A DNA stretch of 64,000 bases. Origin: Candidatus Nomurabacteria bacterium (GTDB lineage: Bacteria; Patescibacteriota; Patescibacteriia; Magasanikbacterales; UBA922). The translations under genes were made by a program, and so were the position numbers. A model generated the notes under the pieces. It was not told the origin of the DNA, searched no databases, and saw only the letters and a list, made by a program, of their open reading frames with translations. This document shows positions 34,649-37,669 of the stretch, piece after piece. Positions within the stretch are counted from its first letter, which is position 1; each line of letters opens with the position of its first letter. The DNA lies in NCBI GenBank assembly GCA_020632445.1, contig JACKFN010000003.1, positions 81,118 to 145,117 of the forward strand, in the 5' to 3' direction.

Positions 34649-37600
34649 CTAGTTGTTGGGGTGGGTGCGGACGATGCGGAAGCCGGTCCAGCGCTCCGGG
34701 TTGTTCGGGGTGCTTCCGGTGCGTCTGGCGAACCGGTAGTTGAGGACCCCGTTGGCCGGGTTGCGACCGAAGTCGGCCGCCGATCCACCCCGCGTGGTAC
34801 GGCGGCCGTTCGCCTCCAGCTCCTCGAAGAGCGGATCCACGACCGCCTGGTTGCCCAGGCTGCCGTTGTAGGCGTCGTAGGTCCACTCCCAGACGTTGCC
34901 GATCATGTCGTACAGCCCGTTGCCGTTGGGCAGCTTGCCACCGACCGACTGGGGCTGCTCGAGGGGCGCGTTGTCGGCGAACCAACCGATGTCCGTGAAG
35001 TTTTCACCGTACGTCGCACTCGGGTGGTTGGCCCGGGCCGCGTACTCCCACTCCGCGTCGGTCGGCAGCCGCCAGCCAGTGCAGTCGAGGCCCATGAAGT
35101 TGGGCTCGACCTGGTCGGCAGCATCGACCAAGTTGTAGGCCTCGGCGTCCGCGTTGAGGTAGCACACCGGCAGCCCGTGGTCGACCGACAGCGTGGTCAC
35201 GTAAGCGATCGCCGCGAACCAGGTCGCGGTTTCGACCGGGCAGTCCGGGCAGTCTCCCACCCGGGTGCTCGGATCGAATCCCATCAGGTCCGTGAACTCG
35301 GCCTGGGTGACCGTGTACTTCCCGATCATGAAGTCTCGGGTCAGGGTCACCTCGTGACGATCTTCGTTCTGCGCTCGGCCGACCTCGTTCGCCGGGGACC
35401 CCATCTGGAACTGTCCCGCCCGGATGAGGACGTAGTCCTCGGGCGAGCAGTTGATGAAGCCATCGTCGACCTCGCCGTTGCAGTCGTCGTCGATGCCGTT
35501 GCACAGCTCCTCGCTCGGCTGGCCGGGCTCGGCATCGCACGCCGCGCCCTGCTCACCGCAGACCCGAAGGCCTTCGCGCTGGCACGCTCCGACGCCCACG
35601 CTGCAGGCCTCGCCGAGCCCGGGGATCCCCTCGTCCGTGTCGCCGTCACAGTCGTTGTCGACACCGTCGCACATCTCGTCCATGGGGCCCATGCTCTCGC
35701 AGGACTCCACGCCGTCCATGCACATGGCGTAGCCGTGGGCGCACTGGCCCTGCTCGCCGGTGTCGCACTGCCCGGGCAGCTCGTAGTCGGGATCCTCGAG
35801 ATCGGTCTGGCCGTCACAGTCGTTGTCCAGGCCGTCGCACACCTCCAGGGAGGGCTCGACGTTCTGGACGCAGACCATGCCGTCCTCGCCCTGGCACTCG
35901 AGGGTGCCGGCCGCGCAGACCCCAGTGTTGCCGGTGTCGCACGGACCGCCGCCGAGATCCTCGTCGACACGACCGTTGCAGTCGTTGTCGACGCCGTCGC
36001 AGATCTCGGGGCCGGAGGGGACGCAGTTGCTCTCGCAGCCGTCCGCGGGGTTGCCGTTGAGATCGGCGAACCCCTGCTGGCACACGAATGCGCACTGCGC
36101 CGCCGCGCACACGGGCACGGCGTTGGGGGGGGAGGGGCAGCGGACGTTGCATCCGCCGCAGTTGGTCGGGTCGCTGCTCAGGTCGAAGTCCTCGTCGGTG
36201 TCGCCGTCGCAGTCATCGTCGCGGTCGTTGCACAGCTCGGCCGCCGGCTGGCAGACGTCCGGGCACTCCGGACAGATCCACCCGTCCTCGCCGGTGCACT
36301 CGGCCTCCATCAGGATGGGAGCCTCGGCGTTGCCGCACATGCACACCAGGTTGTCGGGCTGGGCGAGCTCCTCGTCCGTGTCGCCGTCACAGTCGTTGTC
36401 GATGCCGTCGCACAGCTCGTCCTCGGGCGAACCCTGGACCGCGGTGCACACGACCTCGCGACCGTCCTGGCTGCACTGACGCACGCCGCTCGCGCGACAG
36501 GCGCCGACACCGACGCTGCACGCCTGGCCGAGCTGGTTGTACCCCTCGTCGATGCGCCCGTCGCAGTTGTCGTCGCGACCGTTGCACATCTCCTGGGGCA
36601 CCGCGCCGCACTCGCCGCAGGCGTTGAGCAGGCCCTCGTCGACCTGCCCGTCGCAGTCGTCGTCGATGCCGTTGCAGATCTCCGGGGATGGCTCGGACGG
36701 CTCGCACAGGATCCTCGAGCCGTTGCCGTTGCGGCAGACCGTGCTGCCGCGCCGACACTGGCCACGCGCCTCGAGCGCCTGGCAGGGCTCGGACTCGAAC
36801 TCTCGGGGATCGCAGAGGCAGCCCTCGTCCACGTTCCCGTTGCAGTTGTTGTCCACCTGGTCGCCGCACATCTCCCCGTCCTCGTGGCCCGGGGTCGGCG
36901 TGCACTCGTACTCACAGCCGCTGTTCGGCTGTCCGTCCAGGTCGATGAAGCCCTCCTCGCACTCGGCGATCACGCACAGGCCCGCCTCGCACGCCGCCAC
37001 CGCACCATCCAGCTCGCACTGGTGGCCGCAGCGACCGCAGTTGAGCGGGTCGAACTGCAGGTCGAAGTCCTCGTCGATCTCGCCGTCGCAGTCGTTGTCC
37101 AGGCCGTCGCACACCTCCGCGGAGGGTTCGACGACCATGGCGCAGACCATGTCGACACCATCGCACTCGAGGATGCCGGCCGTGCAGACGCCCTGCTCCC
37201 CGGTCTCGCACTCGTTTCCGACCGTGGGGTCCTCCTCGCAGGAGGGCATCCCCATGTCGTCGGTCTCGCCGCCATCGGTCATCTCGCCACCGTCCGTGGT
37301 GGCGTCGATCTGGCCGGCGTCCTCCATGCCGGCGTCGATCATCTCGCCGCCGTCGGGCGTCATCGCATCGCGTCGCCCGGCGTCGGGCATGAAGCCCTCG
37401 TCCGGCATGTCACCGCCGTCGGGCAGCATCACCTGGGCGTCCTCACCGGGGAGGACGCCGTCCACGCCGGGCCCCGCGTCCCGGTTCGGGACGCAGTAGT
37501 TGAGCTCGCACCAGTAACCGCCGACGCAGTCGGCGTTGGACGAGCAGTTCTCGTCCACGCTCGGATCACAGGCTCCGAGCAGGCCCACCATCAGGACGGC

Positions 37601-37669
37601 CGCAGCCATCATCTTCCGACCCATGGGTTTCCTCCCCCTGGTTCGATGTGTCAGTATCAGGCACCCCAC
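34649..37669 (-). CDS. High-GC secreted lipoprotein: lipobox signal, about 10 Cys-rich C-x-D-x-D-C-D-G-x-x-D-E repeats, C-terminal FGE-sulfatase-type (SUMF1/DUF323) domain
   Basis: MGRKMMAAAVLMVGLLGAC lipobox; repeated CDGLDNDCDGEIDE, CNGIDDDCDGQVDE and similar; C-terminus has GWRLPTDAEWEYAARA and GNVWEWTYD FGE-domain hallmarks; GGAGG RBS 7 nt upstream; about 70% GC. Confidence 0.7.
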   Translation of the reverse strand: MGCLILTHRTRGRKPMGRKMMAAAVLMVGLLGACDPSVDENCSSNADCVGGYWCELNYCVPNRDAGPGVDGVLPGEDAQVMLPDGGDMPDEGFMPDAGRRDAMTPDGGEMIDAGMEDAGQIDATTDGGEMTDGGETDDMGMPSCEEDPTVGNECETGEQGVCTAGILECDGVDMVCAMVVEPSAEVCDGLDNDCDGEIDEDFDLQFDPLNCGRCGHQCELDGAVAACEAGLCVIAECEEGFIDLDGQPNSGCEYECTPTPGHEDGEMCGDQVDNNCNGNVDEGCLCDPREFESEPCQALEARGQCRRGSTVCRNGNGSRILCEPSEPSPEICNGIDDDCDGQVDEGLLNACGECGAVPQEMCNGRDDNCDGRIDEGYNQLGQACSVGVGACRASGVRQCSQDGREVVCTAVQGSPEDELCDGIDNDCDGDTDEELAQPDNLVCMCGNAEAPILMEAECTGEDGWICPECPDVCQPAAELCNDRDDDCDGDTDEDFDLSSDPTNCGGCNVRCPSPPNAVPVCAAAQCAFVCQQGFADLNGNPADGCESNCVPSGPEICDGVDNDCNGRVDEDLGGGPCDTGNTGVCAAGTLECQGEDGMVCVQNVEPSLEVCDGLDNDCDGQTDLEDPDYELPGQCDTGEQGQCAHGYAMCMDGVESCESMGPMDEMCDGVDNDCDGDTDEGIPGLGEACSVGVGACQREGLRVCGEQGAACDAEPGQPSEELCNGIDDDCNGEVDDGFINCSPEDYVLIRAGQFQMGSPANEVGRAQNEDRHEVTLTRDFMIGKYTVTQAEFTDLMGFDPSTRVGDCPDCPVETATWFAAIAYVTTLSVDHGLPVCYLNADAEAYNLVDAADQVEPNFMGLDCTGWRLPTDAEWEYAARANHPSATYGENFTDIGWFADNAPLEQPQSVGGKLPNGNGLYDMIGNVWEWTYDAYNGSLGNQAVVDPLFEELEANGRRTTRGGSAADFGRNPANGVLNYRFARRTGSTPNNPERWTGFRIVRTHPNN

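Follow-up and report, generated by a model that had tools for sequence, protein, structure and literature searches.

A G+C-rich stalk-and-head lipoprotein gene held in a surface-polysaccharide locus of low-G+C Patescibacteria

A 64,000-nucleotide stretch of a Candidatus Nomurabacteria contig (JACKFN010000003.1), here called the window, carries on its minus strand a G+C-rich gene for a 991-aa lipoprotein precursor. The gene probably encodes a non-enzymatic cell-surface binding protein of Myxococcota ancestry, which would have become a fixed and regulated part of a surface-polysaccharide locus in a small clade of bacteria of the candidate phyla radiation (CPR, Patescibacteria). The protein adds one member to a known family that is mostly uncharacterised; what is unusual is the persistence of its codon usage at a conserved slot, together with a private structured leader.

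Results

The gene was found in a minus-strand open reading frame (ORF) listed at 34649-37669 of the window. Its coding sequence runs over 34649..37624 (stop codon at 34649-34651) and has a G+C content of 0.69, with 0.92 at third codon positions (GC3), in a CPR host of ~41% G+C. The probable start is the ATG at 37624-37622, eight bases 3' of a GGAGG (37631-37635), and the product is a 100% match to MCB9798597.1, named 'SUMF1/EgtB/PvdO family nonheme iron enzyme' at NCBI. A first-pass annotation, made from the letters of the window before this analysis, had extended the gene to the GTG at 37669. That codon is not the start.

The C-terminal head (residues 723-991; 34652..35458, minus strand) is a complete FGE-sulfatase / C-type-lectin-like fold without the catalytic cysteine pair. 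A Pfam search matched PF03781 (FGE-sulfatase) over profile positions 3-255 of 255 with E 5.5e-36, which bears out the earlier assignment of the C-terminal domain to the family of the formylglycine-generating enzyme (FGE). The head-only AlphaFold2 model reached a predicted local distance difference test score (pLDDT) of 91.3 and a predicted template-modelling score (pTM) of 0.91. Foldseek placed the Treponema denticola protein TvpA nearest among solved folds (2y3c; E 2e-20, template-modelling (TM) score 0.79), ahead of PvdO (0.71) and of FGEs (~0.67; human FGE, TM 0.67, E 1e-15), and TvpA was also the top match by sequence in a phmmer search (E 7e-16). The catalytic Cu(I)-binding cysteines of FGE, which follow the GGS motif (C336 and C341 of the human enzyme), had been proposed for a check in the first-pass annotation. 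In the alignment to T. curvata FGE (6s07), GGSFLCHESYCNRYR of FGE stands opposite GGSAADFGRNPANGVLNYR of the query, and neither cysteine is present. The consensus of 37 close homologues lacks the pair as well.

A Pfam search of the protein found no DinB-type iron-binding domain of the EgtB/OvoA type. The NCBIfam models for EgtB, PvdO, GldK, SenA and OvoA scored 18-60 bits against cut-offs of 350-500 (EgtB 45 vs. 360, PvdO 57 vs. 500, SenA 34 vs. 420 and GldK, TIGR03525, 60 vs. 350 bits). Neither a sulfatase (PF00884) nor a C/S-x-P-x-R signature was found within the 64-kb window. To judge from these sequence comparisons, the protein would best be read as a binding module on a stalk, neither an FGE nor an iron enzyme, and the caveat of the earlier annotation, that FGE-like domains are often non-catalytic binding modules, appears to be the right reading. 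The NCBI product name is then misleading and, because the protein would be a binding module, nothing can be learned from it on the activation of sulfatases in CPR bacteria.

The N-terminus is a signal peptide with a lipobox (37568..37624, minus strand), MGRKMMAAAVLMVGLLGA before C19, as read from the sequence. The lipobox is LLGAC, in accord with the lipoprotein call made before, and is kept as LLGGC and MVGC in the orthologues described below. An acidic low-complexity tether rich in D, G, P and M follows (about residues 46-128; 37241..37489, minus strand), with short repeats in its DNA; it is predicted to be disordered, with pLDDT ~27 over residues ~48-166 of the AlphaFold model. The cysteine-rich stalk (residues 129-722; 35459..37240, minus strand) consists of ten PF11617 'MopE' modules alternating with small beta-hairpin cysteine knots, the latter well predicted in the full-length AlphaFold model (pLDDT 75-94). 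Pfam matched PF11617 (Cu-binding_MopE) in 8 stretches with E 2.4e-38. A motif search for C-x-[DGN]-x-x-D-[DN]-[DN]-C-[DN]-G-x-x-D gave exactly ten modules, at residues 172, 253, 317, 347, 405, 465, 542, 596, 652 and 708, and the DNA repeat finder also returned a ten-copy family; the roughly ten myxobacterial-type repeats first reported are thus placed on a firm footing. The large internal duplications reported with them are real, at 76-85% DNA identity, but the two ACSVGVGAC blocks given as the example lead into different MopE modules. The protein has 81 cysteines, one in the lipobox and 80 others, most of these in the stalk, and contains 12% Asp and 9% Glu.

Relatives with PF11617 number in the thousands in a full-length protein search, and a genome scan confirmed 434 stretches. 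The named relatives are mostly Myxococcota (Polyangia, Nannocystaceae, Bradymonadia) and are 30-41% identical over the stalk. In Myxococcota the gene and its flanks have the same G+C content, which marks the family as native to those genomes. The Myxococcota proteins, which are of a secreted type and in which several PF11617 modules are joined to PF03781, have the same module type, N-terminal signal and C-terminal FGE-fold domain, and they also alternate MopE motifs with CGxCG and beta-hairpin cysteine knots. Most of their heads, however, are truncated (profile positions ~85-255), whereas PF03781 is complete in the window protein. The window gene differs further in its CPR host, in being a compositional outlier, and in its CPR-type promoter and private leader.

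Two other CPR genomes carry the gene at the same place. A 385-kb contig (L001) of Candidatus Magasanikbacteria GCA_002787355.1 has a 50% identical orthologue (P0009) in the same slot and orientation, in the order epimerase, UDP-glucose dehydrogenase (UGDH), GT4 glycosyltransferase, gene and Wzx flippase. The synteny extends to a sugar transferase, a ~590-aa hypothetical protein, an S8 peptidase and another epimerase. Between the two genomes the flanking proteins are 82% (UGDH), 78% (epimerase), 57% (GT4) and 33% (Wzx) identical. Beyond Wzx the Magasanikbacteria contig has an MBOAT gene instead of sulfation genes, so the closeness to sulfation genes seen in the window is not conserved. In the P0009 record the start is set at a GTG (10001 of that contig) that lies inside the conserved leader; the likely start within 10001-10057 is the ATG at 10055 behind AGGAG, which gives MNRFFTLVAACLFSFLLGGC with a lipobox.

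A search with the flanking GT4 found one further close relative (59% identity), on a 2.1-kb Logan contig (L083). It shows, in order, GT4, terminator, promoter, leader, GGAGGAAACC-ATG and a G+C-rich gene, whose start encodes a lipobox (MVGC), a D/P-rich tether and the first cysteine module. Beyond the three loci the best GT4 was 45% identical. No relative with an empty site was found; this GT4 type occurs in only three genomes of the searched databases, and the gene is present in each of them. An assembly chimera was ruled out by three independent assemblies of two organisms and by a third organism. Two Joint Genome Institute contigs (506 kb and 11.8 kb) match the Magasanikbacteria contig at 100% identity, and chimerism is excluded because the shorter of them (L090), an independent assembly, spans both island junctions from low-G+C flank to low-G+C flank.

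The stalks of the two full-length orthologues are colinear module by module to residue ~722 and ~60% identical. Among themselves CPR stalks are 50-60% identical, compared to at most 41% with any Myxococcota relative. The head of P0009 covers only PF03781 profile positions 87-193, and the window head and the P0009 head gave a BLASTP E of 0.03 over 32 residues. The heads of the orthologues are unrelated in sequence, having been either replaced or altered past recognition. The window head has relatives among metagenomic and Myxococcota proteins (37-50% identical), which points to replacement of the tip by other G+C-rich DNA in one lineage. Adhesins and receptor-binding proteins whose tips can be exchanged show this same combination of a conserved stalk and differing heads.

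The gene sits in a compositional island (~34570-37860) with sharp edges, of 69% G+C in a window of ~41%, as the first reading of the gene as island cargo had it. The GC3 of 0.92 compares with 0.35-0.44 in the neighbouring genes, and the same contrast was found for the orthologues (0.84 vs. 0.25-0.33 in the flanks of the Magasanikbacteria locus; 0.91 vs. 0.34 in the GT4 of the Logan contig). The codon bias is general (GAG 94%, CAG 100%, CTG/CTC and GCC/GCG dominant) and even along the gene (0.91 in signal and tether, 0.93 in the stalk and 0.90 in the head). Because it is both general and uniform, the codon usage is the signature of a whole high-G+C genome. Amino-acid composition or a preference for NNC codons was rejected as the cause, in view of the general bias. 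Intragenic repeat conversion is unlikely as the sole cause, since the non-repeated signal peptide, tether and head have a GC3 of 0.90-0.91 like the repeats. A 1014-aa antisense ORF (34634-37678, plus strand) spans the entire gene. It was rejected as a second gene and is an automatic by-product of sense codon usage; its frame is free of stops because the sense strand uses no TTA, CTA or TCA codons. A public gene call on the Logan contig (1457-2149, minus strand) is the same antisense artefact.

We then compared synonymous sites between the window gene and its Magasanikbacteria orthologue. At identical residues the same codon was used in a fraction of 0.67, against a random expectation of 0.61 (z 3.7), which is close to random, and the flanking genes were likewise near random (z 0 to 2.9). 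At fourfold sites that are G/C-ending in both orthologues the base agreed in 64%, compared to 55% if randomised, so ~80% of the original synonymous signal has been lost. The fourfold sites of the flanking UGDH (z 0.6) and epimerase (z -0.8) are fully randomised, and those of GT4 show a small excess (z 2.2). A neutral model, in which sites are redrawn from the fourfold composition of the host starting from a 100% G/C ancestor, was fitted to the observed randomisation. It predicts a fourfold GC3 of 0.56 and 0.50 for the two copies, and at most 0.65 and 0.61 at +3 SD (standard deviations), whereas 0.90 and 0.84 were observed.

The gene has its own transcription signals, all on the minus strand. 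The upstream low-G+C edge of the unit is the GT4 terminator hairpin, GGGCCTTGCAAGGCCC and then a T run (37978..37998), whose position is kept in the orthologous loci. It is followed by a sigma-70 promoter, TTGACA-17-TATAAT with an extended -10 TG (37944..37972), which matches the consensus at 12/12 positions and whose spacer is kept in all three loci. The structured 5' leader of ~310 nt (37625..37938) comprises a 5'-terminal hairpin and a long hairpin with a three-way core, and in it the GGGG of the ribosome-binding site pairs with a CCCC stretch. The 3' end of the unit (34553..34614) has first a G+C-rich hairpin (34581-34614) and then a short hairpin with a T run, and here the composition falls to low G+C.

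The leaders of the three loci are 58-66% identical in pairs. Their consensus fold has 76 pairs, 19 of them kept through changes on both sides; in helix 7, 5/6 pairs are compensatory (GCGUGU/ACACGC, GCAUGG/CCAUGC, GUGCAA/UUGCAU). The leader cells were paired in 93.8%, as compared to 38-46% when the 3' partners were slid. The 19 compensatory pairs compare with 6.9 +/- 2.1 in shuffles (0/500 reach 19) and with 2-5 in slid alignments. At the transcription start, predicted near 37937, lies the 5'-terminal hairpin TTATTGTAC-N5-GTGCAATA (37916-37936), which is kept in the three loci. This inverted repeat could be an mRNA stabiliser hairpin or an operator; its changes are compatible with G-U pairing, which argues for constraint on RNA rather than on DNA. 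The covariance model of the leader core (R1; 37719..37880, 160.7 bits) matches only the orthologous loci, at 148-161 bits, and gave no match in other CPR MopE loci or in ~1.5 Mb of Myxococcota DNA. Rfam 15 gave no match at E <= 1 over 32300-38200, which takes in the stretch of 55% G+C upstream of the gene, and at gathering score it found tRNA only in the whole window. A relaxed leader pattern searched in metagenomes returned 8 loci, of which two (L088 and L090) belong to the Magasanikbacteria population and the rest are chance matches (L085 was checked). The leader is a candidate new regulatory RNA, previously undescribed.

The repeat finder detected no flanking direct repeats at the island edges, just a weak 14-nt inverted match. 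No mobility genes were found at the island, and the sole recombinase and tRNA of the window are 17 kb distant. That part of the window (2000-17000) resembles an integrated mobile element, with a DUF2779 protein, type III restriction-modification res and mod genes, a 729-aa Toprim primase-like protein and a large serine recombinase (15314-16918) whose 3' end overlaps a tRNA-Trp (16904-16977, minus strand). The AT skew changes sign at ~9-17 kb.

Other G+C-rich MopE genes were found in CPR polysaccharide loci. In two Falkowbacteria (L002 and L024) a MopE-repeat gene, 30% identical, immediately precedes a syntenic set of Wzy, GT4, GT4 and GHL15 genes (38-50% identical); its GC3 is 0.70 and 0.54, respectively, against 0.22-0.47 in the flanks. 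In a further Patescibacteria genome (L027), MopE genes lie in a block of 62% G+C beside a polysaccharide pyruvyl-transferase. Thus G+C-rich MopE genes beside surface-glycan genes are recurrent in CPR. In these genomes multi-gene blocks (L002 6000-14700, L024 2000-14050, L027 8000-14000) exceed the host G+C by 10-20 points; they hold MopE-repeat genes, small genes without a Pfam match and a CBM77-like protein, and always lie by Wzy, GT4 or pyruvyl-transferase genes.

In the window the immediate neighbours are the Wzx flippase (33262-34500) and the GT4 glycosyltransferase (38040-39170). The gene had first been placed between 3'-phosphoadenosine 5'-phosphosulfate (PAPS) genes and the flippase; it actually lies between Wzx and GT4, with the sulfation genes beyond Wzx. 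All three are enclosed in a polysaccharide locus of ~33 kb (17.4-50.3 kb) that contains Wzy, epimerases, many GT4 genes, a deacetylase, methyltransferases, a sulfotransferase, CysQ, CysD and CysNC, as well as UGDH, an initiating sugar transferase and an S8 peptidase. Between CysNC and Wzx (32409-33265, plus strand) the sulfotransferase motifs PKSGRTW, RDPRDVVVSYY and RKGKVGGY are spread over three successive ORFs, each in another frame. The stretch has the look of a second sulfotransferase gene with two frameshifts, either a pseudogene or an effect of sequencing error. The ~590-aa protein and the adjacent S8 subtilase (43299-47072, plus strand; 918-4712 of the Magasanikbacteria contig) are kept beside the locus in both genomes. 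The former has no confident Pfam match and a weak match to bacterial TSP3 repeats, and both may be further surface or processing components. Directly after the locus, a T2SSE/PilB-type ATPase gene (50756-51790, plus strand) precedes the cell-wall genes for PBP2, Mur ligase, MraZ, MraW and MraY.

Discussion

We propose that the ancestor of the gene would have come from a high-G+C Myxococcota-like donor before the split of the three CPR lineages, and that some gene-specific force may have held its codons G/C-ending since then. The lipid anchor would fix the protein in the cytoplasmic membrane of the monoderm cell and the stalk would carry the head outward past the wall and the polysaccharide layer. 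The head would recognise a ligand, either a glycan or a protein, on a partner cell or on a substrate, and the protein would thus act as an adhesin or receptor whose tip can be exchanged. Expression would be controlled after the start of transcription, via the leader; a 5' stabiliser hairpin and the pairing of CCCC with the Shine-Dalgarno GGGG point to mRNA life-time and translation as what is controlled.

Several points weigh against this proposal. The full-length AlphaFold model (pLDDT 60, pTM 0.32) was too poor for a fold search, partly because the aligned homologues carry a different head. The stalk gave no PDB sequence match at E <= 1, MopE included; it is probably disulfide-rich and Ca2+-stabilised, with Ca2+ binding read solely from the D-x-D-x-D-G-x-x-D-E pattern. 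The leader analysis used only three sequences, whose alignment also supplied the structure. The force that holds the G+C content is unexplained, and an adhesin role does not account for it. Finally, a structural role in the export or anchoring of the polysaccharide would fit the same anatomy.

We consider it unlikely that the protein is such a structural or accessory part of the polysaccharide machinery, either a ring or scaffold lipoprotein like PorK/GldK or an anchor of the polymer to the membrane. Its position beside Wzx inside the locus is conserved, and other CPR MopE genes adjoin Wzy and GT genes. PorK/GldK and GldJ of type IX secretion and gliding are also lipoproteins with a non-catalytic FGE fold, which in them has a structural role, and PorK/GldK is among the hits. 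However, the GldK score is far below its cut-off, no PorL/M/N-type partner genes of a type IX secretion system were found among the annotated neighbours, the host is monoderm, and PorK/GldK and GldJ lack a cysteine-repeat stalk. A head in contact with fixed partners would be expected to be conserved, which it is not between the orthologues. The gene is also read from its own promoter and leader, not within an operon.

A distinctly unlikely alternative is a recent island, for which each CPR lineage took its own copy separately from related high-G+C donors, or the contigs are chimeric; no special force on codons would then be needed. The complete codon signature of a high-G+C genome favours this, as does a downstream edge that cannot be aligned between the genomes. 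The head was exchanged at least once with other G+C-rich DNA, and the other G+C-rich MopE genes in CPR loci suggest repeated transfers. The synonymous-site data leave two explanations: a force specific to this gene that favours G/C-ending codons, or divergence of the copies within high-G+C donors followed by separate entry into each CPR genome. We regard separate entry as unlikely, because homology is unbroken from GT4 through the terminator, low-G+C promoter and leader into the gene in the same slot and orientation of three genomes, because leader and GT4 rank the relatedness of the three loci alike, and because the CPR stalks are closest to each other even when compared to thousands of Myxococcota relatives. 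Moreover, mobility genes and repeats at the edges are lacking, both junctions are covered by an independent assembly, and 1.5 Mb of Myxococcota loci gave no match to the leader model.

Classical ameliorating islands, as in the model of Lawrence and Ochman (1997), share with this one the sharp contrast, donor-like codons and surface-protein cargo. They differ from the present case, which has neither mobility genes nor edge repeats, has kept its position in three diverged genomes, and has a GC3 of 0.84-0.92 where the neutral expectation is 0.50-0.65. Old transfers are usually expected to be invisible through amelioration, as a recent study of horizontal gene transfer in Patescibacteria states (PMC12455944), and we found no report in the literature of the opposite, an old transfer that keeps the donor composition. 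The force could be selection on the mRNA of a disulfide-rich exported protein, for unusual stability or slow translation, or it could be biased gene conversion. Tentatively, and at somewhat less than even confidence, we suggest that this is a long-resident transferred gene in low-G+C CPR bacteria, in which a gene-specific force keeps ~90% of codons G/C-ending and which the undescribed ~310-nt leader governs, and that the other CPR MopE loci (two in Falkowbacteria and one in Patescibacteria) represent the same phenomenon and not fresh transfers.

The likeness of the head to TvpA raises the question of whether it is the variable protein of a diversity-generating retroelement (DGR), hypermutated by a reverse transcriptase with a template repeat outside the window. 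We hold this to be improbable. The head has the fold of DGR targets, the FGE-type C-type-lectin fold, and its closest solved relative by both sequence and fold is a DGR variable protein. TvpA is likewise borne on a lipoprotein, binds a ligand and lacks the FGE catalytic residues. DGRs with targets of the FGE/C-type-lectin fold are reportedly common in CPR. On the other side, no island segment recurs elsewhere in the 64-kb window, which is part of a contig of 147,920 bp, by blastn-short and blastn. No reverse transcriptase was found by Pfam among the scanned window ORFs or in the gene tables of the Magasanikbacteria contig and of L002. Among three near-identical variants of the P0009 cluster, each from another assembly, the sole differences are the start call and a 10-aa tether indel (PDAEV x2), and their heads are alike, although the head of P0009 is of a different type from that of the window. 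TvpA, for its part, has no cysteine-repeat stalk. The indel is an in-frame loss of two PDAEV repeats in P0362 relative to P0009 (residues 108-117), so the tether is polymorphic in length.

A metal-handling protein, binding copper like MopE or buffering calcium, with the ten acidic cysteine modules as its functional part, is very improbable. PF11617 is named 'putative metal-binding motif', and the protein is rich in Asp and Glu. However, the homology to MopE is limited by Pfam to the 30-residue PF11617 motif. This model spans just a short part of MopE and has no specificity beyond that site (PMC6189053), and teneurin-type extracellular proteins contain the same motif as a structural element (PMC3278476). 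For these two reasons the 'Cu-binding' name of PF11617 is not a statement of function. The stalk resembles no solved protein, and metal binding by such modules is more likely structural.

That the protein is a genuine FGE, or another oxidase of the SUMF1/EgtB/PvdO type, serving the adjacent sulfation pathway, a link that the first-pass annotation had raised as perhaps coincidental, is already largely refuted and retains next to no probability: the full-length PF03781 match, the fold (TM ~0.67) and the GWRLPTxAEWEYAAR, GNVWEW and RGGS motifs shared with the human (SUMF1), T. curvata and S. coelicolor enzymes, the nearby CysD, CysNC, CysQ and sulfotransferase genes and the NCBI product name are outweighed by the loss of both Cu(I)-binding cysteines, the lack of a DinB-type domain, the low EgtB, PvdO and GldK scores (45-60 bits), the window without a sulfatase, the MBOAT gene in place of sulfation genes at the orthologous locus, the different and truncated head of the orthologue, and a predicted site outside the cytoplasm at the tip of a 600-aa stalk.

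The non-enzymatic surface binding protein that we favour bears on two matters. Few attachment factors have been described for CPR bacteria, which live attached to other cells; a stalk-and-head lipoprotein with an exchangeable tip, conserved and under its own regulation within a surface-glycan locus, is a concrete candidate for one. The gene also departs from the rule that foreign genes drift to the composition of their host, with a GC3 of 0.84-0.92 in genomes of GC3 0.25-0.44. This is a warning for methods of dating horizontal gene transfer that equate compositional contrast with recency, and the three orthologues offer a clean natural test case for gene-specific codon or G+C selection, or for biased gene conversion, in bacteria.

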